Source: a bacterium
GTDB taxonomy: Bacteria; Zhuqueibacterota; Zhuqueibacteria; Oceanimicrobiales; Oceanimicrobiaceae
Assembly: GCA_037446635.1 (NCBI GenBank)
Contig: JBBIIG010000003.1
Coordinates: forward strand, 1-23,201
DNA: 23,201 nucleotides
Direction: 5' to 3'
Shown here: positions 2,018-15,046 of the stretch, in pieces
Layout of the letters: every line of letters begins with the position of its first letter
Numbering within the stretch: position 1 is the stretch's first letter
Notes under the pieces: model-generated
Told to the model about the DNA's origin: nothing
The model's database searches: none
The model's input: only the letters and a program-made list of their open reading frames with translations
Program-made: the position numbers and the translations under genes

Positions 2018-3800
2018 ATGAACAAGACGAATGCATTATCCGCAGGCATGACTTTTTTCCTGTTATTTTTCATTTCAGTTAACGTTTCCCGCGCACAGAC
2101 AAACTTCTTTTATTACCAGGGGGAAAAAGTCATACTAAATGTCAAAAACACTCAACTGAGTATCATCTTTTCCGAATCCACTACGAAATCAAATGCCGCT
2201 GATCTATTATCCCGGTATGACATTGCCGGCGAGCTGGAACAGGTAAGGAATGTTGCTCTGCCGGCCTTTTATACGGTTAAATTTGACGAACCGAGAGATA
2301 TCGGCAACACGATCAGCAACCTCAAAAGTGAAGGCGACATTATATGGGCAAATCCTGTTTTTGAGCGTAACGGCACGGAGTTTAAGGTTTACAACCGGTT
2401 TGTGGTAAAATTGACTTCGCTCGTTTCCAGGGAACAAATTGATTCATTGAACCAAAAACACCATGTTAAATTAATCCGAGAAAGCGGCACCGGGCGCTAT
2501 ACTTTTGAGTTGGGCGACCAGGCAGATTTACCGGTTATGGATATGAGCAATCTATATTACAAGGAATTAAATGCCGATTGGGCCATGCCCGATTTTATCG
2601 TTCCTTTTGAATTTTACGGTAACCCAAGTGATTTCTATTTCTCCTATCAATGGAATTACAGCCAGGCTAATGACCACGACATTGACGCACCGGAGGCCTG
2701 GGATATCAGTACCGGCAGTTCCGACATTATTGTAGCCGTGGTGGATAACGGTGTGATGGCCCATCCCGATTTACCTGCTGCACGGATTGTTGAAGGTTAT
2801 GATGCTGTGAATTTACTACCATCTTCGGATCCAGATGCGAATGTTGAACCAAATAAGAACGAAGCGCACGGCATGGCCTGCGCCGGAAAGGACGGCCTAT
2901 TTCGCACCAAACGCTCAATAAACACCGAAGCAGAATGGCAATACTTGGGTTTGGGAGATTTGCAGGTTGTAGAGCCGGGCACATTTGGAGTTATTGATGT
3001 TGTAGTTCTAAATGATACGATAGTAGCAGGTGTTTCGGTTGGTTCGGACCAATTTCAGACGTCTGGTATTTATCGCTCTGTAGATGACGGCAACTCATGG
3101 GCGCCTTCCGATAGCGGATTTGTTGGATCCTCCGGCGTGGTTCTTAAACTTGCCCAGTCGCTTTCAAATCCTCGTATGCTTGCGGCAGGATGTATCTTTG
3201 GACCAAAGGTATATATAAGCAAAAATTTCTGGATATCTTGGATACCAGTATTTAACTTTGCACCGGATGCTGAAGCGGTATTTTCTACCTTAGGTTTTTC
3301 TCCACACCTCCCTAATGAAATTTGGGCCGGCGGGGCTGTGGTTCCTATTTACAGTAATCCCATACTGTTTCGCTCTACGGATTTTGGTGAAAAACGGAAC
3401 GACGTTTTGAACCGACCTCGTGATCCAAATTTATTTGAGAAAGTAAACGATATTGCTTTTGATTCTGAAGACGAACAAACAGTATATGTTTGCATGAACT
3501 ACGTCATTTTAAAAACCACGGATAGCGGTAATAACTGGACGCCCTCTGATACCTTAAGATCACCCCTACACAGTTTGTCGCTAGATCCTTCCGACAACCA
3601 GGAATTCATTGCAGGTGCTCTCGACACCTTATATCACAGCTTAAGATGGTATGCAATCCTGGTCTATGTTGGAAACAACTCCTGAAAGTGTTGACACTGA
3701 TATGAGGACACTTGCTGTGGATTGGCAAAAGCGGATTTTGTATGTCGCTACTTTCAGCGTATTAAGTCCACTAAAGGGAGTGTATAAGCTTTATTTTTAA
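2018..3800 (+). pseudogene. Chimeric gene: N-terminal half of an S8 subtilase fused to a BNR/Asp-box propeller protein; +1 frameshift near 3644
   Basis: Signal peptide, prodomain, IVAVVDNG (Asp) and HGMACAG (His) but no catalytic-Ser motif; then SxDxGxxW Asp-boxes. Removing one A at 3643/3644 restores HSLDGMQSW...LYVATF...KGVYKLYF, stop 3798-3800. Confidence 0.8.
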
Positions 3801-3948: not shown

Positions 3949-6170
3949 GACAAAATTTGTTGTTTTATGCCCAAGCCGGGGGAATTTTGTTTTTCTTTTT
4001 GATTGTATTTGACGCCAGAGTTTTTGCCCAGGAAGGCTGGATTTGGCAAAACCCCTTGCCGCAGGGAAATGACCTTAACATAGTGCAATTTGTCGACCGG
4101 CAATATGGATGGATAGTTACGGAGGGCCCGACTTTGATGCGGACAGGCAATGGTGGACAAACCTGGGAAATTTTATACATCGACATATTCCTGGATAAAA
4201 TCCAGTTTCTCAATTCACGTTTGGGTTGGGCAGTTGGTCGTGAAGAATTTGCGAACCCCAATCGACATGTCTATCACACAACCGATGGCGGCCAATCCTG
4301 GCAGCGTCAACTTGAGGGACCTGAACCGGAGTTTGTATTCTCACTCTTTTTTCTTGATTCACTTCGAGGATGGATTTCGGGTTGCTTAAAAATATACCAT
4401 ACCGCGGATGGCGGGAAAACCTGGATAACTCAGGGGGACTCGCTTTTTCGGCCAAACTGCTTAAATGGCGTAACGTTTAAGGATTCTCTTCACGGCTGGG
4501 CTTATGGATTAAGCTGGGGGATTAGAACCGAGGATGGTGGCCAGACCTGGGTTAGCGATGCTGGCAGTCCCCCCGGCCGGAAAATGGTCTTCATTGATTC
4601 CACTCATGGCTGGCTTGCATCCGCTAGGCGACTCAGACGGACAATTGATGGCGGCCGGAACTGGGAGATGCTGCCGGACTTGCTGCCACCACTCAGTGAC
4701 GAGAACATCGAGGATCTGATTGCGCTGGAACGTAATAAGCTACTTTTATCAACGTACAAAGGACTGTATGCCAGTAATGATGGCGGTTTTAGTTGGGAAA
4801 AATACACTGATCAGCCCTTAGGCAAGATGGCGTTTCTAGATTCATTAAATGCATGGGCAGTGGGGCCTGAATTTCCACATGACCCGGCGCAATATCGCAG
4901 TACAGACGGCGGTCGCACCTGGGAAAAGTTAATAAAAAACTTCACTCAGGATAAAAGCGTTTTGTTCAACGATGTGGATTTCGTCAATAGTAACGTAGGT
5001 TGGGCTCTTGGAACGGCTGGACTCTCGCAGTCCCGCTACCTGGCTAAAACTACTGATGGTGGCTCAAACTGGGAAGAATTCCCAACTCCCGGCAATAATA
5101 GGTTACATGCGGTACAATTCTTGGATACGCAACAGGGATGGTTAGTTGGAAATAATGGTAGTGTTTTCTACACCGCTGACGGTGGTTCAACCTGGAAAGA
5201 TCTTTCAATTAACACTTCCGACGATATCGGCACCGTACACTTTTATGATACTAGCCGTGGTTGGGCAATTGGTAGCTCATTTGAGTTAGAAAAAGGAGCA
5301 ATCTGGAAAACGAGCGATGGTGGGCTGAATTGGGTGAATCTCAGCCCGCTAGATATGAAACGAGTTGAAGGGGCAGCGTTTATTGATACCTTATATGTCT
5401 GGATCGTCACAGGAGGCGGGTCTGTTACTGATGCTGGCAGTATCTGGCACACTAATGACGGCGGCCAAAGTTGGGAACGCCAGCTTCCAGACAACCCTTC
5501 TCTCGATTTCCGAGCCATCGCTTTTGCCGACACCAACGTAGGTTGGGCTGTTGGCTTTGATTATCAACAAGGCGGAGTTATTTATGCAACCAATAATGGC
5601 GGTAAAACCTGGGGAGTGCAATCAGTTATAAGTTTCACCCCTCTGGATATAACGGCCTTTAACCAGCAAAGAGCTTTGATCGTCGGTTTTAGCGGTCATA
5701 TCATCGCCACCAGCGACGGCGGACAAACGTGGATCGAACAACGCAGCCCTACCAGCAATTTTCTTGAAGCTGTCGATTTTTTTGATGCGCAAACCGGCTG
5801 GATTGTGGGCTGGCGTTCGACCATCCTGCATACGAAAACCGGTGGGCCAATCGCAGTCGAAGAGAGGCCAACGCTGAGAACACAACCGAAATCGTTTCGC
5901 TTGCTGTCAAATTATCCTAATCCTTTTACATTGAATACGCAGGTTGCTTTTGAGCTTTATCAGAACTCGAGGGCGGTGGATTTAACCTTCTACAATCTTC
6001 TGGGCAGAAAAGTGCGAACCATTTCATCAGTGGCACTCTCACCCGGCCGGCACGCACTGGTGTGGGATGGTCGTGACGATTCTGGCATAGTACTTCCTTC
6101 GGGTATCTATTTCTATCGTTTGCAGGTCGAGCAAGAATGGCAGACCGGAAAAGTTGTTTTAGCGCGGTAG
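3945..6170 (+). CDS. YCF48-related/BNR-repeat double beta-propeller secreted protein with T9SS/FlgD C-terminal domain
   Basis: WIWQNPLPQGNDL N-terminal motif, many FxDxxxGW and TTDGGxTW repeats, NYPNPF...WDGRDDSG...SGIYFYRL...GKVVLAR. Confidence 0.92.
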   Translation: MRQNLLFYAQAGGILFFFLIVFDARVFAQEGWIWQNPLPQGNDLNIVQFVDRQYGWIVTEGPTLMRTGNGGQTWEILYIDIFLDKIQFLNSRLGWAVGREEFANPNRHVYHTTDGGQSWQRQLEGPEPEFVFSLFFLDSLRGWISGCLKIYHTADGGKTWITQGDSLFRPNCLNGVTFKDSLHGWAYGLSWGIRTEDGGQTWVSDAGSPPGRKMVFIDSTHGWLASARRLRRTIDGGRNWEMLPDLLPPLSDENIEDLIALERNKLLLSTYKGLYASNDGGFSWEKYTDQPLGKMAFLDSLNAWAVGPEFPHDPAQYRSTDGGRTWEKLIKNFTQDKSVLFNDVDFVNSNVGWALGTAGLSQSRYLAKTTDGGSNWEEFPTPGNNRLHAVQFLDTQQGWLVGNNGSVFYTADGGSTWKDLSINTSDDIGTVHFYDTSRGWAIGSSFELEKGAIWKTSDGGLNWVNLSPLDMKRVEGAAFIDTLYVWIVTGGGSVTDAGSIWHTNDGGQSWERQLPDNPSLDFRAIAFADTNVGWAVGFDYQQGGVIYATNNGGKTWGVQSVISFTPLDITAFNQQRALIVGFSGHIIATSDGGQTWIEQRSPTSNFLEAVDFFDAQTGWIVGWRSTILHTKTGGPIAVEERPTLRTQPKSFRLLSNYPNPFTLNTQVAFELYQNSRAVDLTFYNLLGRKVRTISSVALSPGRHALVWDGRDDSGIVLPSGIYFYRLQVEQEWQTGKVVLAR

Positions 6171-6202
6171 GTCAATTAATATTTGCAGAAAGGAGTAGTA
6201 AA

Positions 6203-9200
6203 ATGTTGGCGAACAGAAAATCTCTCAACTTAGCGGGCGAAGTTAGAGCATGGGTTCTTCTAATTGTTATGCTTGTGACAGTCAATTCGACCCGGCTTCA
6301 CGCCCAGACTAATCACGTTTATTTTGAGGCTCCGATTATTGTTGAAAATGGGGTTACGCTATCAACCCAAATTACGGTGAACTTTAAAGAGCACGTTTTT
6401 GACCTGGCACCCGCCCAGATTGAGGCAACCATTGCAGATGCGGCACCGGCCTATCCAAATGCAAAAAAGGTATTTCAAGATCTCGAACTGCGTTTTGGCA
6501 GGGTTGTCTTCCAGAAGCAAATTCCGGGCGCCATCTGGGGAGATGTCTGGCGAACAAACAAGGTTACCGGAGAGCTGGTTCGCATTCACGAATGGTCGCA
6601 GCTCTTTTATGTTGTGTTCGAGGATTCCGCGCCGATTGATTCGATCATCACCGTGCTCAAAAAACTTCCAGAAGTGGACTACGCACATGGCCCGATCGGT
6701 GTAATTCGAGATGCGGAGCCTAATGATCCTAAGTACTTGGACGGAACACAATGGAACCTCACCAAAGTGAAAGCCTCATCGGCTTGGGATATCACCCAGG
6801 GCAGCACGGCGTTACGCATCGGCGACGTCGAATTTGATAGCGTCCCCGATCGTAATCATCCGGACTTCTGGACCGGCCCAGGTACAACTGGAACCAGCAA
6901 ATTCGATGGCGGAGATCTCACCGCCAACGACTTTCTTCATGCAACGCAAGTCGCCGGAATTATCGGCGCCGCCACCAATGATGGCGATGGAATTGCCAGT
7001 CTGGGATGGAATTTGATTATAAAGCCCTACAAGTTTACAAGTAATGCAGGTAGTGAAACCACACCAGGAAGCTTGGCAAATGCTATGAGCCGAGCAATAG
7101 ATATTTGTGATGTTATCAATTGCAGCTTTACGTTGATCACGAGCACCATCACTAATTGCGGGGGATGTCAACTTTATGACCCGGCCGGAGCTACTACTTA
7201 TCCTGAAGTGCAAGATGTCTTTGGCGATGCTATAAACCTCGGCATAGTTGTCACCGCTTCCATGGGTAACACGGGCAGTAATCGTATAAAGAATCCTGGC
7301 CACCCGGATTGCCAGACTTGTCCGACCGTGCCATTTACAGCCCATCCCGCCGCTTATGCTGGCGTGATTGGTGTTACCGCCACGGATATTAATGACGACG
7401 TGCCGAATAACTATAATTTCAATGATCCTGATGGGGTTCCGTTTATCGATTTTGCTGGTCCTGGAATTGGTGTTTTGAGCACCAGCCCCGGTGGTAATTA
7501 CTACACCGACAGCGGTTCATCATTTTCTGCACCTCTGGTAGCCGCTTTAGCAGGTTTGATGAAATCAATAAATGCTGGTTTGACGCCCAGTCAGGTTCAG
7601 GACATTCTTCAAAACACATGTGACCCAATTAATGAAACCCCCGCCTATGCTGGCGCAGGCCGTATCAACGCCTACCAGGCGCTGTTGCTCACCCACGCCT
7701 ATTCCAACAAATCTATGGATACCGACGCCACCGCTCACAACTCCGGCCGCCGGTTGGCGCGAGATGGTTCGGGCAATTACCATTTAGTCTTTGGCTCCGG
7801 CGGCGAGATTTTTTACCGTAAATACCAGGGCGGTTCCTGGCAACCACCGCAACGTCTCAGCAGCGGCAACGGCAATAATAAATATCCCTCCATCACCGAG
7901 CGCGGCGGCAATCTCTATGTCGTCTGGCAGCGTTACGATGGCAGCTCGTACGACATTTTCTTCCGCAAAAGCACAAACGGAGGAACGAGTTGGGGCACCG
8001 CGGCTGAAATAAGATCTAATGCCGGCTCGAGCAATCCCTTGCCTGTAATTGTCAGCCCCAAAACCGATGAGATAGTTGTTGTCTATCGCTATGGCCAGAT
8101 TCTGGAATCCAAACGGAGTACCAACAATGGTTCAAGCTGGTTCACCAATGTTATCACTGAGGGAACTTTAAGTTATCCCAGTGTCGCGAAAGTTAATCGG
8201 CAACCCTGGGGTGAGCCCACTACGGCTTTAGTTTATGGCAAGAGCGATACCGATGTTTACTATCGCTACTATGACACCGCAGGCAGCAGTTGGAGCGCAT
8301 CAACCAATTTATCCAGCATCATTCCGGGCACAGCAACGCACCAAACGCCATCGCTATCGTCTGAAGGCGCTGGTTATACTGTTGTGCACGTCGCCTGGCA
8401 CGAGACCTCTGGGAGCGGCCTATATCAGAATAACATCATCTATCGAAAATCCACCGGATACAATTCCTGGAATTCTCAGTACACTCGAATTTATTACCAA
8501 GATCAACGAAGACCTACAATCACTGCGCTTCATTCGTCCAGTGTTGATATTATATTCGAATCGAATTCGGCCCAGCAAGTCGGTAAACAACACTTCAATG
8601 GCTCTTATTGGAGTGGTCCAACCTACATAGGTGGTGGCCAATACCCCTCAGTCTCAACCGGCAGCAACCAAGCCAAATACGTCTGGACAAGTTCCGGCAG
8701 TGCACCCTACACGATTAATATTAGCTCAGAAACCTTAAGCAAAGAAGGTGAAAGCGGCGAGCCGTATTATGAGCGCGTGATCTCATGGCTGGACACGACT
8801 GAGGATCAGAGCCACATCACCGTGCATGTCAAAAATCTGAGCCTGAAAACTTCCAATGGTGAGGCACAAACTCTGCCCTTGCAACCGGTATCACTGGATA
8901 CAATTCCTGATTTTACTCCTGCCAACGCCTTTGATTATCTGGTAGCGACGCCAGCGCTGTTACCGGCGGATGCCGAGAGTCTGGTGGTAGATTTGAGTTT
9001 GTGGACGGAAAATGCCGAAAAAGTTGGATCAGGCGCCAATTCTAAAATAAGTCTGGAGTTCAAGGACGACGATGAACAATCGCTGACAACGATTTCTGGA
9101 CCGGCTTTTAGCGCTTCCGGTTCCATTTCGGAAAAAGCGCTGCGGTTCGCCGTGCCATTAGCAACAGTAAAACAAGCGCTCGGTTCAAAAAGTGTGAAAG

Positions 9201-9610
9201 TGAACGTCCAGATCGAAGGGCTGACCCCCAATTCAACAACGTTCGCAAGCCTGGGTCACATCTACGACTTCAACAAGTCTGTGGAAAATTCCTCGGCAGA
9301 ACAAGAGGTACTGACCAGCAACTCCTTGCCCCAAACAACCTCTCTGATGGGAAGCTATCCCAACCCCTTTAACCCGGAAACAACCATTAAATATCAAATC
9401 GACGATAGCGGACAAGTTCGGCTGAACATTTTCAATTTGCGCGGACAGAGAATCCGCACGCTGGTAGATGAGTTGAGGACGCCGGGAACGTACGAAGCCC
9501 GCTGGGACGGTAAAGATAAAAATGGTCAAGCCGTCGCATCCGGAATTTACGTCATTCAAATTCAAGCCGGAAATGTAATCGACGCAAGAAAAATCACTTT
9601 GCTGAAGTAA
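6203..9610 (+). CDS. S8 subtilisin-like serine peptidase + BNR/propeller region + T9SS/FlgD C-terminal domain
   Basis: AAGGAG RBS before ATG 6203 (preferred over 6137); PNDP..QWNL..AWDIT, HATQVAG, ASMGN, SGSSFSAPLVA, GAGRINAYQAL; STNGGTSW Asp-boxes; YPNPFNP...RKITLLK. Confidence 0.9.
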   Translation: MLANRKSLNLAGEVRAWVLLIVMLVTVNSTRLHAQTNHVYFEAPIIVENGVTLSTQITVNFKEHVFDLAPAQIEATIADAAPAYPNAKKVFQDLELRFGRVVFQKQIPGAIWGDVWRTNKVTGELVRIHEWSQLFYVVFEDSAPIDSIITVLKKLPEVDYAHGPIGVIRDAEPNDPKYLDGTQWNLTKVKASSAWDITQGSTALRIGDVEFDSVPDRNHPDFWTGPGTTGTSKFDGGDLTANDFLHATQVAGIIGAATNDGDGIASLGWNLIIKPYKFTSNAGSETTPGSLANAMSRAIDICDVINCSFTLITSTITNCGGCQLYDPAGATTYPEVQDVFGDAINLGIVVTASMGNTGSNRIKNPGHPDCQTCPTVPFTAHPAAYAGVIGVTATDINDDVPNNYNFNDPDGVPFIDFAGPGIGVLSTSPGGNYYTDSGSSFSAPLVAALAGLMKSINAGLTPSQVQDILQNTCDPINETPAYAGAGRINAYQALLLTHAYSNKSMDTDATAHNSGRRLARDGSGNYHLVFGSGGEIFYRKYQGGSWQPPQRLSSGNGNNKYPSITERGGNLYVVWQRYDGSSYDIFFRKSTNGGTSWGTAAEIRSNAGSSNPLPVIVSPKTDEIVVVYRYGQILESKRSTNNGSSWFTNVITEGTLSYPSVAKVNRQPWGEPTTALVYGKSDTDVYYRYYDTAGSSWSASTNLSSIIPGTATHQTPSLSSEGAGYTVVHVAWHETSGSGLYQNNIIYRKSTGYNSWNSQYTRIYYQDQRRPTITALHSSSVDIIFESNSAQQVGKQHFNGSYWSGPTYIGGGQYPSVSTGSNQAKYVWTSSGSAPYTINISSETLSKEGESGEPYYERVISWLDTTEDQSHITVHVKNLSLKTSNGEAQTLPLQPVSLDTIPDFTPANAFDYLVATPALLPADAESLVVDLSLWTENAEKVGSGANSKISLEFKDDDEQSLTTISGPAFSASGSISEKALRFAVPLATVKQALGSKSVKVNVQIEGLTPNSTTFASLGHIYDFNKSVENSSAEQEVLTSNSLPQTTSLMGSYPNPFNPETTIKYQIDDSGQVRLNIFNLRGQRIRTLVDELRTPGTYEARWDGKDKNGQAVASGIYVIQIQAGNVIDARKITLLK

Positions 9611-9647: not shown

Positions 9648-9788
9648 ATCCCCCTTCCGCGAAGCCTGCCTGCGCAGGCAGGCGGATCCGCTTTGGCGGA
9701 AAATCCCCCTTTCCGCCGAAGGCGGATCGGCTCAGCCGACAAAGGGGGACTTAAAGGTATCTGCGTTCATCAGCGCAATCTGCGTCCC
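9648..9788. repeat. Cluster of nested REP-like palindromes
   Basis: CCTGCCTGCGCAGGCAGG, TCCGCTTTGGCGGA, TCCGCCGAAGGCGGA and TCGGCTCAGCCGA inside ATCCCCCT-AAATCCCCCTTT..AAAGGGGGACTT, followed by ATCTGCGTTCATCAGCGCAATCTGCGTCCC. Confidence 0.88.
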
Positions 9789-9808
9789 ATTAAATGAAAG
9801 AGCGAGCC

Positions 9809-11362
9809 ATGGTAAAAGAAATCTTGTCCGACGAAGCGGATCGGCTTGTCCGACAAAAACCCGATTCCTTCTTTGAAAGCTTCACCCGCAAACCCGGCGC
9901 CGAGCCGCGCACCACGCACTACTGTCCCGGCTGCGGACACGGCGTCATCCACAAACTCATCGCCGAGGCCATGGATGACTTCGGCATCCGCGAGCGCACC
10001 GTGTTCATCAGTCCGGTGGGCTGCTCGGTATTCGGCTACTACTATTTCAATTGCGGCAACGTACAAGTGGCGCACGGCCGGGCTCCTGCCGCCGCCACCG
10101 CTATCAAACGGGCGCTTCCTCACGCCATCGTGTTGAGCTACCAGGGCGATGGCGATCTGGCTGCCATTGGCGGAAACAACATTTTGCAGGCGGCCAATCG
10201 CGGTGAAAACATCACCGTCATTTTTGTGAACAACGCCATTTACGGCATGACCGGCTCGCAAATGGCGCCCACGACCCTCATTGGACAGAAAACCACCACG
10301 ACGCCCCTGGGACGAACGGTTGAGAACGAGGGCTATCCCCTCCGTATGTGTGAGTTGTTGGCCACTCTGGAAGCGCCCGTCTATATCGAGCGGGTGGCCA
10401 TCACCGATTCCAAACACGTGATGCAGGCGCGCAAGGCCATTCGCAAAGGCATCCAAAATCAAATCGACGGCCGCGGCTTTTCGTTCATCGAGATCCTCTC
10501 CCCCTGTCCCACCGGCTGGAAAATGACGCCCTCGGAAGGAAAGAAGTGGGTGGACGAAGTTTTGAGCAGCTACTTCAAGTTGGGAATCTACAAAGATAAA
10601 AATGGCGTGCTGTCCGCCGAAGCGGATCGGCTCGACCGAAAACCCACCGACGGCGCGCCGAAAAGAATTGAAAAGAAACCCACGCCCACTGGCGACCTGT
10701 CTGCACAGGCAGGTGAACTGTTGGCGATTTTAGGCGCAACGAAAGAGGACTCGGCGGCAAAACTCACCCGTCCGATTGCAGATGTGAATTTCCGCAACCC
10801 GCGCATGAAAGTGGCGGGCTTCGGCGGACAGGGCATTCTGCTGTTGGGACAACTCATGGCCGAAAGCGCGATGGTGCTGGATTACTACTCCACCTGGCTG
10901 CCCTCGTATGGCCCGGAGATGCGCGGCGGCACCGCCAATTGCCACGTGATCATTTCCGAGAAGCGCATCGGCTCGCCGCTGGTGGCGGAAGCCGACGTGC
11001 TGATGGCGATGAACCTGCCCTCGCTCGACAAGTTCGAAAACGACCTGCGGCCCGACGGCGTGATTTTCGTGAACAGCTCGCTCATCTCCCGCAAGGTGGA
11101 GCGCAGTGACGTGCAAACGGTGTACGTGCCCGCCACCGAGTTAGCCGACGAATTGGGCGAAACCAAAGTCGCCAACATGGTGATGTTAGGCGCTTACATT
11201 GGCTACACCGGACTTCTCTCATTGGAGAGCGTATTAGCCGCAGCGAGAACGGTGATCAAACGCAAGGAGTTCATGGAACTGAATGAAAGGGCATTGAGGA
11301 AAGGGATGGAGTTTGCGAAGAGGCAGTACGTAAAAAGATCATTGCCGGAAGAGGTGGTTTAG
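9809..11362 (+). CDS. 2-oxoacid:ferredoxin oxidoreductase beta (TPP-binding) + gamma subunit fusion
   Basis: HYCPGCGHG, SPVGC, HGRAPA, QGDGD..AIG, VNNAIYGMTGSQMAPTT, ILSPCPTGW (beta); AGFGGQG, PSYGPEMRGGTA, NMVMLGA (gamma); alternative ATG at 9794. Confidence 0.95.
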   Translation: MVKEILSDEADRLVRQKPDSFFESFTRKPGAEPRTTHYCPGCGHGVIHKLIAEAMDDFGIRERTVFISPVGCSVFGYYYFNCGNVQVAHGRAPAAATAIKRALPHAIVLSYQGDGDLAAIGGNNILQAANRGENITVIFVNNAIYGMTGSQMAPTTLIGQKTTTTPLGRTVENEGYPLRMCELLATLEAPVYIERVAITDSKHVMQARKAIRKGIQNQIDGRGFSFIEILSPCPTGWKMTPSEGKKWVDEVLSSYFKLGIYKDKNGVLSAEADRLDRKPTDGAPKRIEKKPTPTGDLSAQAGELLAILGATKEDSAAKLTRPIADVNFRNPRMKVAGFGGQGILLLGQLMAESAMVLDYYSTWLPSYGPEMRGGTANCHVIISEKRIGSPLVAEADVLMAMNLPSLDKFENDLRPDGVIFVNSSLISRKVERSDVQTVYVPATELADELGETKVANMVMLGAYIGYTGLLSLESVLAAARTVIKRKEFMELNERALRKGMEFAKRQYVKRSLPEEVV

Positions 11363-12375: not shown

Positions 12376-14289
12376 TGATTGAACGATTGACTAAAAGGAG
12401 GGTAACCAAGAAATGGATTATCTGCTTAGCGGTTTCAGGATGTACACTGTTGTTGTCAAGCATGCCGGGCTTCGCAGGTGCACAATGTGCCCTGAATATA
12501 ACTGGCTCAGGTTCGCCATCATCGAATAAAATGCTCATAGTCTGGGCAAAAACTTATGATGATGGCAGCTCATTTCCCGGTTGGGCTAGTTCGATTCCGA
12601 CAACGCTAGTCGACTTTTATGAATTGATGTCCTACAACCAGCACCATGTGACCACGAAAGCGGCGACTTTTAACGGCGGCTTCTATGTCTCAGACCCCGG
12701 CCACACGGTTGATTGGTACAAATCGCAATATCAGCAATCGCCAAACGGTTATTTGGGTCCGTGGGGTGTTTTTGTAAAAGAGATTCTTACAAAAAGTTGA
12801 AAACGATAAAGGCACCGCATATTTTGACGACGTGAATCTAATTGCAATGATGATAACAGACGGGGGGTCGGACTGGTATCTGGCCGGTGGTAATTATACG
12901 GGCATTGGATGGCTCGGTGTCACGTATAGAACAGGTAATGGAAAAACTTTTGATCGTTATGCCGGTGGAATTACCAATGAATTTGCTATCGGACAAAACA
13001 CCACAAAGTGGGTAATCTGCCATGAATATGGTCACTATATTGGCCTTGGACATCGTGGCACCAACTATGGTGCTTATTCTTTGATGTACTGGGAAAAACT
13101 AAATGAAGGTGATGAAGGTGCGATGCCGTTGAGTATTCTGGAGATTGCTGGTCTGGGTTGGCTTGACCTTAACAACTCCAACCGCGTGCAAACCGTCAGC
13201 TCCGGCGCGCTTACTAATTTCAGTCTGAAGCCCATCCGAAGTACGTCCGGCAAAGTGGCTATAAAGGTGAATATCTCTTCCAATCAGTACTTTTTAATCA
13301 ACAACCACCAGCAGTCAACAAATCCGTATGATGCCACCTATCCCGCAAGTGGCGTCCTTATATGGCACATCAACGGTTCATCTGGTGACCTTGAGTGCGC
13401 CGTCCCACGATCTGGTGAAAATCAAGATCATTTGGATCTTCCCAAATCAGACCCAAATTATCATGGAGAAGGTTTGGCCGGAGATTTTTGGAGACCGTCG
13501 TCCCAGAATACCTTTGCACCGTGGACCAATCCCAATACCAAATCGTGGACGGGAAACTTCACCGATATCAAGGTGAAAGTAAAAAGCCAGTCCGGCGGTG
13601 ACTACGTTTTGGACGTTTTTAAGAATTCTGAGCCAGCGGCACCCAAGAACTTAGTCATCACCAACCCCGGTAGCGATGGCTCTCATCCCATCCTACAATG
13701 GAACGCCAACACTGAGCCCGACCTTCATCACTATCTGGTCTGGCGCGGCACCACTCCCAACTGGAAAACCACGCCCATCACCTGGGAATCCTCGTCGGCG
13801 GCCAACGTCACCAACACCACCTGGACCGACACCCAAACCATCATTGATTTAGACGTTCTCTCGGCAACTTATTATCGTATCACGGCCGTCGATGCCGTAA
13901 GTAATCAGTCAGACTATTCCAGTTCAGTTGGCACCACCTCCAACCCGCTTGCAAAACCAGCAGAGGAAGAACCGCACGCAGCTTCGCTGCCGGAGAATTT
14001 TTCTCTGCATACCAATTTCCCGAATCCCTTTAATCCCTCAACGGAGATCAAATTTGATCTGCCGGAGCCGGCGCAAGTCAATTTAACGATTTTCAATATC
14101 GCCGGTCAAATGGTGCGCACGTTGGTGGACGAGCCCCGGTTAGCTGGTTACCACAGCATCCTGTGGGACGGTCGCGATGAATTCGGAAACGAGGTGGCCT
14201 CGGGTATGTATCTGTATCGAATTTCCGCAACCACGACTGCAACGGCATCGCCTTATGTGGCGGTCAAAAAAATGTCATTACTACGATGA
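12375..14289 (+). pseudogene. M6/immune-inhibitor-A-like zinc metalloprotease + FN3 + T9SS/FlgD CTD, split by a +1 frameshift at 12791-12795
   Basis: ORFs 12348-12800 and 12832-14289 join (EILTK-VENDKGTAYFDDVNLIAMM) if one A of the 5-A run is removed; DFYELMSYNQ, HEYGHYIGLGH zinc motif, YSLM Met-turn, GVLIWHI, FN3 (PAAPKNL...YYRITAVD), NFPNPFNP...KKMSLLR. Confidence 0.82.
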
Positions 14290-14536: not shown

Positions 14537-14654
14537 TTGGAGTGTTGGAGTACTGGGGCTTTGGAGTGATGAATTGGATTGATGGATTGATGGATTAATG
14601 GATTAATGGATCGATGTGTTCTGTTACTCCAATGATCCATTACTCCAATACTCC
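14537..14654. repeat. Degenerate 8-mer tandem repeats (GGAGTRNT/GGATTRAT) followed by inverted copies
   Basis: ttggagtg ttggagta ctggggct ttggagtg..atggattg atggatta.. then ttactcca atgatcca ttactcca atactcc. Confidence 0.88.
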
Positions 14655-14842
14655 GCAGGCTTAGTTCGGAGTTAGTAGCGATAGGGCAATGCTGATAGAA
14701 AAATAGATCGTTGTTGTAGTGAAGCCCGGGCACAGCGGCGTCAGATAAAGTTTCTTTCGTGGTATTGACTCGGTGAATAGATTGAGATGCTGACAAGTGT
14801 GTTTTTGATACGATGAGTGCCATGCCGCTGTGCCCCTTTTTT
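14655..14842 (+). ncRNA. Putative structured non-coding element (12-bp terminal stem enclosing 84 nt, followed by a T-run)
   Basis: GGGCACAGCGGC 14728-14739 pairs with GCCGCTGTGCCC 14824-14835; inner hairpin CTCGGT-gaatag-ATTGAG; TTTTTT 14837-14842; identity unknown. Confidence 0.35.
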
Positions 14843-14843
14843 A

Positions 14844-15008
14844 CGTGAAATGTGAAACGTGAGAGGTGAGACGGGCGGAGTTGGAGTACTGGAGTGCTGG
14901 AGTTTTAGAGTGCTGAATTGGATTGATGGATTGATGGATTAATGGATTAATGGATTAATGGATCGATGTGTTTTTACCTTTTCCATTAATCCAAAAATCC
15001 ATTACTCC
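14844..15008. repeat. 7-mer (CGTGAAA-like) run plus a second copy of the 8-mer repeat block
   Basis: cgtgaaa tgtgaaa cgtgaga ggtgaga; 14914-14972 repeats 14570-14620 with one extra TTAATGGA unit; inverted ttccatta atccaaaa atccatta ctcc. Confidence 0.88.
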
Positions 15009-15046
15009 ACATAATATTTTAAATTAGTTGTGGGTCCACTAAAAAA

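Follow-up and report, generated by a model that had tools for sequence, protein, structure and literature searches.

A gene for the fused beta-gamma subunit of a 2-oxoacid:ferredoxin oxidoreductase carries three small in-frame inserts, and the corresponding sites are empty in relatives. The gene lies in a window of 23,201 nucleotides (nt), i.e., the whole stretch of bacterial DNA analyzed (contig JBBIIG010000003.1 of assembly GCA_037446635.1), and its inserts belong to two families of very short hairpins, designated C and D, that are dispersed through this KSB1-like genome (G000). We favor, with a probability of about 0.6, the reading that C and D are non-autonomous mobile hairpins of 18 to 30 bases, missing from the corresponding positions of close relatives, that are likely to have spread and are likely translated. 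All comparative signs suggest that the elements are mobile and likely spread as very small mobile elements.

Since the present case combines a unit of 18 to 30 bases, filled and empty alleles in close relatives, and a specific candidate enzyme for which the hairpin substrate is defined, the way in which repeats of REP, RPE, or SDR size move without a transposase becomes testable in vitro. A scarless route for inserting short DNA would, if true, be of technical interest, and insert peptides of this kind will disturb both sequence alignment and gene calling in the genomes of uncultured bacteria.

Three in-frame inserts and their empty sites

The host gene (9809..11362, + strand; assigned by Pfam, with a start that agrees with orthologues) encodes 517 aa, in which a Pfam scan placed the domains TPP_enzyme_C (residues 78-229) and POR (residues 339-501); its named homologues include KSB1 bacteria. 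Insert A (9827..9853, + strand) is a 27-nt hairpin doublet of family D that adds SDEADRLVR after residue 6, and insert B (10613..10639, + strand) is another 27-nt doublet of family D, adding SAEADRLDR in the beta-gamma linker. Insert C (10696..10713, + strand) is an 18-nt palindrome of family C, which begins at codon position 3 and has a net effect of six additional residues (LSAQAG). The first-pass annotation had placed all three in the frame of ORF 9809-11362, at the N terminus or in the linker, and this was borne out: each sequence was found there, clear of both Pfam domains. It had also described them as decayed copies of the neighboring intergenic hairpins, which is wrong for insert C, a sequence with 7 exact copies in the genome that equals the commonest 18-nt form among the matches listed for genome G047. 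Inserts A and B are each unique in the genome at 0-1 mismatches. Among the 2,943 genes of at least 150 aa, the host oxidoreductase alone contains three elements. There is no in-frame start codon between insert A and the CPGC motif, so insert A cannot be bypassed by use of a later start.

Empty sites were found in orthologues. Site A was empty in all 24 orthologues possessing the N terminus (26 loci surveyed, one lacking the N terminus and one lacking an ORF under the filter). In protein P0002, which is 93% identical, the gaps at sites A, B, and C measure exactly 9, 9, and 6 residues, respectively; P0003 retains insert A, with a single difference, and has neither B nor C; and P0004 lacks insert B and carries a different, longer insertion (~44 residues) at the linker position of insert C, indicating that this site tolerates repeated insertions. 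At the DNA level, a contig from run X3 that differs at 11 other letters over 9792-10298 lacks exactly 27 bases at 9827. The beta-gamma linker is too variable for comparison at the family level, and sites B and C were resolved by the closer proteins. The highest share of locus words recovered in any sequencing run was 0.19, below one half. The four runs compared with the locus were all represented by contigs, and none of the RNA contigs listed spans an insert site. Elements in other genes gave a similar picture: for carA, 18/18 relatives are shorter by 5-7 residues (16 of them by 6); for mnmA, 17/17 covering loci are shorter by 6; and for metH, 15/17 covering loci are shorter by 9.

These empty sites also bear on whether the hairpins or their peptides are regulatory or structural features that serve the host rather than selfish DNA. 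Persistence of insert A in two lineages that are ~91% identical in protein would fit such a function, but a motif scan of the 120 best homologues detected the insert peptides only in P0001 and P0003, with 118 lacking them. Moreover, the genes that contain the elements are unrelated, strand and reading frame vary among copies, and their density is ~6-10 times higher outside genes than inside. A host function is thus largely refuted by the empty sites, and we consider it extremely improbable.

Elsewhere in the window, we noted 8-base repeats, arranged in inverted orientation, in two arrays (14540-14660 and 14880-15010). At 12411-14289, a protein that looks secreted and has a FlgD Ig-like domain at its C terminus is divided near 12800 between two ORFs that lie in different frames. 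The N-terminal half of the ORF at 2018-3685 resembles, by eye, the S8 peptidase of 6137-9610, and its C-terminal half looks unrelated; it is possibly a chimeric remnant.

Two hairpin families and their fate in genes

Family C is an 18/19-nt palindrome with 79 genome copies, and family D consists of two small hairpins with zero spacer (24-30 nt; 99 copies under a loose definition and 93 under a strict one, which drops six). In three shuffled genomes, the C pattern matched 1-3 times and the D pattern 0-1 times. The earlier proposal of very small hairpin insertions is supported, the insertions being dispersed and having empty sites in relatives. The stems of family D covary, with position 3 of the second hairpin pairing as C-G in 51 copies, G-C in 40, and A-T in 2 and being unpaired in 6, and its loops vary. 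The doublet is the unit, given that 93 of 96 first hairpins sit in doublets. An Rfam scan yielded no match above the gathering score and one sub-threshold match (E=0.28). Gene calls from our own hexamer model (3,729 genes) were used with a threshold of 150 aa for counting an element as being in a gene; C and D together occupy 51 of the 2,943 genes above it, including carA, mnmA, metH, RecB, RecC, Lhr helicase, ferrochelatase, and acyl-CoA dehydrogenase.

Just upstream of the host gene, both families occur together in a larger C-run/G-run hairpin repeat (9649..9749; fold z = -6.6) that hosts two intergenic doublets. The first (9656..9700, + strand) is a 27-nt D doublet in which a family C 18-mer (9665..9682), a perfect palindrome of the commonest form, is inserted at the end of the first loop at a G^C step; this nest recurs at G000:C5:35059. 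The second (9712..9739, + strand) is a D doublet of 28 nt, not a multiple of three. Repeats of the same C-run/G-run type flank 20 of 71 intergenic D copies.

The first-pass annotation had taken lengths in multiples of three to be inherent in the elements. Instead, we found that family members of 19, 26, 28, and 29 nt are common outside genes and that the filter acts in genes. Family C comprised 30 copies of 18 nt and none of 19 nt in genes, versus 29 and 20, respectively, elsewhere (Fisher p=1.2e-5), so that 0/20 of the 19-mers are genic. The 19-mers are not hidden frameshifts, because their removal restored no long ORF. For family D, lengths divisible by three were found in 23/24 genic versus 50/69 other copies under the strict definition (p=0.019), and in 25/28 versus 50/71 under the loose one, where the difference is not significant (p=0.068).

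Reading frame was likewise biased. The family C palindrome can be read in three frames, two of which contain a cysteine codon, and the cysteine-free frame (LPAQAG-like) was used by 24 of 30 genic copies versus 10.8-12.9 expected from junction k-mers (p<=1e-5). The same frame was found in 44/56 genic copies from other phyla (crude ORF calls; 123 loci examined). Family D exhibited no frame bias. A bias of this kind requires selection on the peptide, and we infer that cysteine is its cause. Together, the length filter and the frame bias in genes point to translation under selection rather than routine excision; they are sequence-only evidence for translation and peptide-level filtering, even in carA, mnmA, metH, and recBC. 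The inserts thus likely stay in mRNA and protein as loops of 6-9 residues. Judging from these patterns, it is very probable that selection purges copies causing a frameshift or introducing cysteine, such that genes keep only copies with lengths divisible by three, mostly in the cysteine-free frame.

The first-pass annotation had left room for removal of the inserts at the DNA or RNA level, which the length filter and the frame bias disfavor. Precise removal from DNA or RNA, or skipping by the ribosome, with the enzyme being made without the elements, would accommodate the distribution of insert A. In the protein tree, P0002 groups with P0003 (support 84/90; 8 versus 4 informative sites), yet it lacks the insert A that P0001 and P0003 share, a distribution that calls for either a repeated insertion, a precise loss, or an exchange with an empty allele by recombination. 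Similarly, one contig of run X1 lacks A and another carries B and C ungapped, although the two may come from different organisms. However, recombination accounts for the tree conflict equally well, and efficient removal would permit 19-mers and any frame in genes, neither of which was observed. Furthermore, the 10-nt direct repeat at site A has a spacing of 22 nt, and slippage between its copies would not yield the 27-nt empty site. We therefore view removal as very unlikely.

Insertion pattern, distribution, and candidate mobilizers

Family C is inserted without target duplication, and GC flanks only 47 of 81 of its 16-nt cores on both sides. In tRNA duplicates carrying family D, the next tRNA base resumes exactly after the doublet. 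The target of both families is loose (pyrimidines followed by G or T, the cut, then A or C followed by purines), with C favoring G^C, and nesting is seen both among the elements themselves and within larger repeats of REP type. Insertion at the tips of target hairpins in genes showed no clear excess (20/30 and 16/28, versus 58% of random sites). A two-base GC duplication around a 16-nt core was considered and rejected, as junctions other than GC still retain the terminal C and G of the element.

Across 167 genomes of the phylum, family C bursts were confined to G000, G001 (same genus), and G047 (another class), and the strict D pattern was found in two genomes; D-like 30-nt variants occur at low copy number in G061-G063. 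A relaxed D pattern matched 150/167 genomes and was too noisy to classify them. Among the matches listed, the exact 18-mer was found patchily in Patescibacteria, Bacteroidota, Acidobacteriota, Gammaproteobacteria, Chloroflexota, and others. G047 has ~150 copies of 18-20 nt; in a sample of 26, all but one were located outside long ORFs and most sat within larger repeats, so that copy number overstates independent jumps. This patchy pattern across phyla suggests horizontal spread together with hitch-hiking.

Such observations could be explained without a dedicated enzyme, if short, stable hairpin fragments from other single-stranded DNA-processing systems or from DNA uptake were captured by break repair of the host or template switching and then hitch-hiked in REP-like repeats. 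The loose target, blunt junctions, and heavy nesting would fit, as would the passenger status of most sampled G047 copies and the finding that, across 123 loci drawn from many phyla, no gene is a consistent neighbor of the 18-mer (three loci share a GIY-YIG cluster). This explanation is unlikely, however, considering the exact ends at 30 unrelated genic sites and the bursts in only 3/167 genomes, which together suggest a lineage-specific factor.

We then consider enzymes that could mobilize C and D. Of the 11 window proteins scanned, none is a nuclease or transposase, in agreement with the earlier view that the mobilizing enzyme lies outside the window. The genome encodes four Y1/RAYT-like genes and three stand-alone GIY-YIG genes. 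The hairpins flanking all four Y1 genes and two GIY-YIG genes belong to families other than C and D, each matching the flanks of one such gene, and these families are themselves abundant in G000 (8-81 pattern matches for five of six).

RAYT-type HUH nucleases flanked by the same hairpins had been suggested as the place to look. A RAYT-like HUH (Y1) transposase could move the elements in trans through a single-stranded intermediate, as zero-spacer REPINs with the same translated fate. HUH chemistry joins DNA without a host ligase, which counts for this route, as do the four Y1 genes, the absence of target duplication, and the many intergenic copies inside REP-type repeats. In addition, family D is an obligate inverted doublet, as REPINs are according to the description in PMC3116915. 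Nevertheless, each of the four Y1 genes proved to be flanked by its own different repeat family and none by C or D, the flanks of the element copies listed have no constant GTAG or CGTC tag, and no circularly permuted doublet was detected in family D (0 of 96). Hence, we rate movement by a RAYT-like enzyme as somewhat unlikely.

The third GIY-YIG gene (G000:C94:106-342) encodes a protein of 78 aa and lies between tRNA-Ser and a partial tRNA-Ser copy with a family D doublet in its anticodon loop. It matches Pfam PF01541 only, NCBIfam is uninformative, and a single-sequence structure prediction (pLDDT 34) was not used. Among the 43 tRNAs of G000, this is the only locus with an element within 300 nt; its two D-bearing tRNA fragments are identical in sequence and probably reflect one event. 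The closest relative of the nuclease in the phylum (63%) resides in G047, the sole burst genome outside the genus, where the locus includes a tRNA duplicate with both a D-like and a C-like hairpin. In metagenomes, such hairpins were present within 250 nt in 14/25 tRNA-linked nuclease loci versus 1/55 others, a contrast whose significance is overstated by its p-value, the loci being related to each other. In the phylum sample the association was not significant (6/16 versus 2/14, p=0.23). Furthermore, among the best 30 nuclease loci, 14 of 16 genomes with a tRNA-linked nuclease show no burst of the exact C/D families; G061 has D-like doublets and no match to the candidate at E<=1e-8; and in G001 (74% complete), which has both families, the best match is inside an integrase-like gene and not by a tRNA. 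Dead tRNA copies may simply be neutral, safe targets for the elements, and we know of no strand-transfer chemistry for GIY-YIG enzymes.

On this circumstantial evidence, a stand-alone GIY-YIG nuclease of ~80 residues encoded beside tRNA genes is a possible, though tentative, candidate for the trans-acting enzyme of the mobile hairpins. Single-stranded DNA would be cut by it both at C/D hairpins and at the targets, the hairpin fragment would then be sealed in by the repair machinery of the host, and the elements would pass between lineages as passengers of nuclease cassettes and REP-like repeats. The broadest version of this proposal, in which cross-phylum mobile DNA of 18-30 nt, among the smallest known in bacteria, is written by tRNA-flanking GIY-YIG nucleases without transposase or target duplication, adds standard peptide loops to essential proteins, and can occasionally be removed precisely, is doubtful.

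Several further features of these loci were recorded. The end of G000:C90 overlaps the start of G000:C94, giving one locus in the order partial tRNA-Ser with doublet, intact tRNA-Ser, nuclease, second partial copy with the same doublet, and tRNA-Ser. The tRNA-linked nuclease copy L154 (G047:C2:120551-120784) has an internal TGA and may therefore be dead in a genome with ~150 family C copies. At L155 (G001:C522) and L196 (G074:C241), a small GIY-YIG gene apparently lies inside an integrase-like gene (labeled by eye), bracketed by short inverted repeats. Small GIY-YIG genes at L198, L204, L209, L212, L215, L218, and L261 adjoin incomplete copies of tRNA-Pro, -Met, and -Asn, part of whose sequence is interrupted or replaced by single hairpins belonging to other families. 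At G000:C6:18095-18340, the intact tRNA-Pro gene is preceded by a partial duplicate of itself; short repeats occur there, but neither a nuclease gene nor a C/D element. At G000:C44:23400-24030, a 170-aa gene sits between two copies of a short sequence resembling the tmRNA 3' end, forming a minimal island.

Comparison with known systems

Among the matches listed in a search of openly accessible papers, none described families C and D or a link of such hairpins to nucleases beside tRNA genes. Fungal mitochondrial GC clusters, double-hairpin elements, and byps are likewise mobile hairpins of small size and high GC content, a number of which lie in frame. The elements reported here differ from these in being bacterial, and there is no sign of ribosomal bypass, unlike byps, because out-of-frame lengths are excluded from genes.

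Intragenic REPs are GC-rich hairpins, certain copies of which are inserted in frame into housekeeping genes such as recBCD, and most of their inserts span 20-30 residues, as outlined in PMC3733652; REPINs are inverted REP doublets in the account of PMC3116915. C and D resemble them in their GC-rich hairpins and in-frame genic copies, and family D does so in its inverted doublet unit (family C being a single palindrome). They differ in adding 6-9 residues, in having about a third of their copies in genes, in inserting into REP-type repeats, in flanking no RAYT gene, and in having no GTAG/CGTC tag at the ends, as judged by eye from the flanks of the copies listed. Rickettsia RPEs also insert in frame into functional genes and are kept in the protein, and in vivo expression is cited for them in PMC3733652. 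With a size of 105-146 nt according to a table in PMC3184786, RPEs are four to eight times longer than C and D (18-30 nt), which in addition have no CGTC end and are spread across phyla.

The single-domain GIY-YIG protein Ssn (Chenal et al. 2025) is described as cutting single-stranded DNA at its own flanking hairpins (NTS/SRM) and may drive repeat expansion; NTS are rarely found in genes (2%), and the main text of that article contains no occurrence of "tRNA" (PMC11893778). Ssn as described there is a precedent for GIY-YIG cutting of single-stranded DNA at a hairpin family, not for DNA insertion. The published SRM pattern matched 0/178 elements (0/79 C and 0/99 D) and nothing within 500 nt of the candidate gene, although it is insensitive in this genome because hairpins beside the two other stand-alone GIY-YIG genes were also missed. 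By the tests applied, families C and D do not qualify as REP/RAYT, RPE, MITE, or SRM elements, although the supplementary list of intragenic REPs (PMC3733652) and SRM tables (PMC11893778) could bear on membership. As for MITEs, which have target-site duplications and measure 70-300 nt, neither feature applies to C and D, whose GC/GC flanks (47/81) and exact tRNA junctions show no duplication.

The SDRs of Nostocaceae reportedly measure 21-27 nt. These very small repeats (SDR1-8) are described as confined to Nostocaceae and as having an unknown mobilizer, and SDR5 inserts precisely into palindromic HIP1 (PMC4390886, PMC5861425, PMC2884548). Compared by descriptions only, C and D share with SDRs their very small size, precise insertion, and unknown mobilizer; in contrast, SDRs insert in a short palindromic target, whereas the target here is loose and the 18-mer is identical across many phyla. 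In their manner of working, the elements resemble intragenic REPs, RPEs, and Nostoc SDRs.
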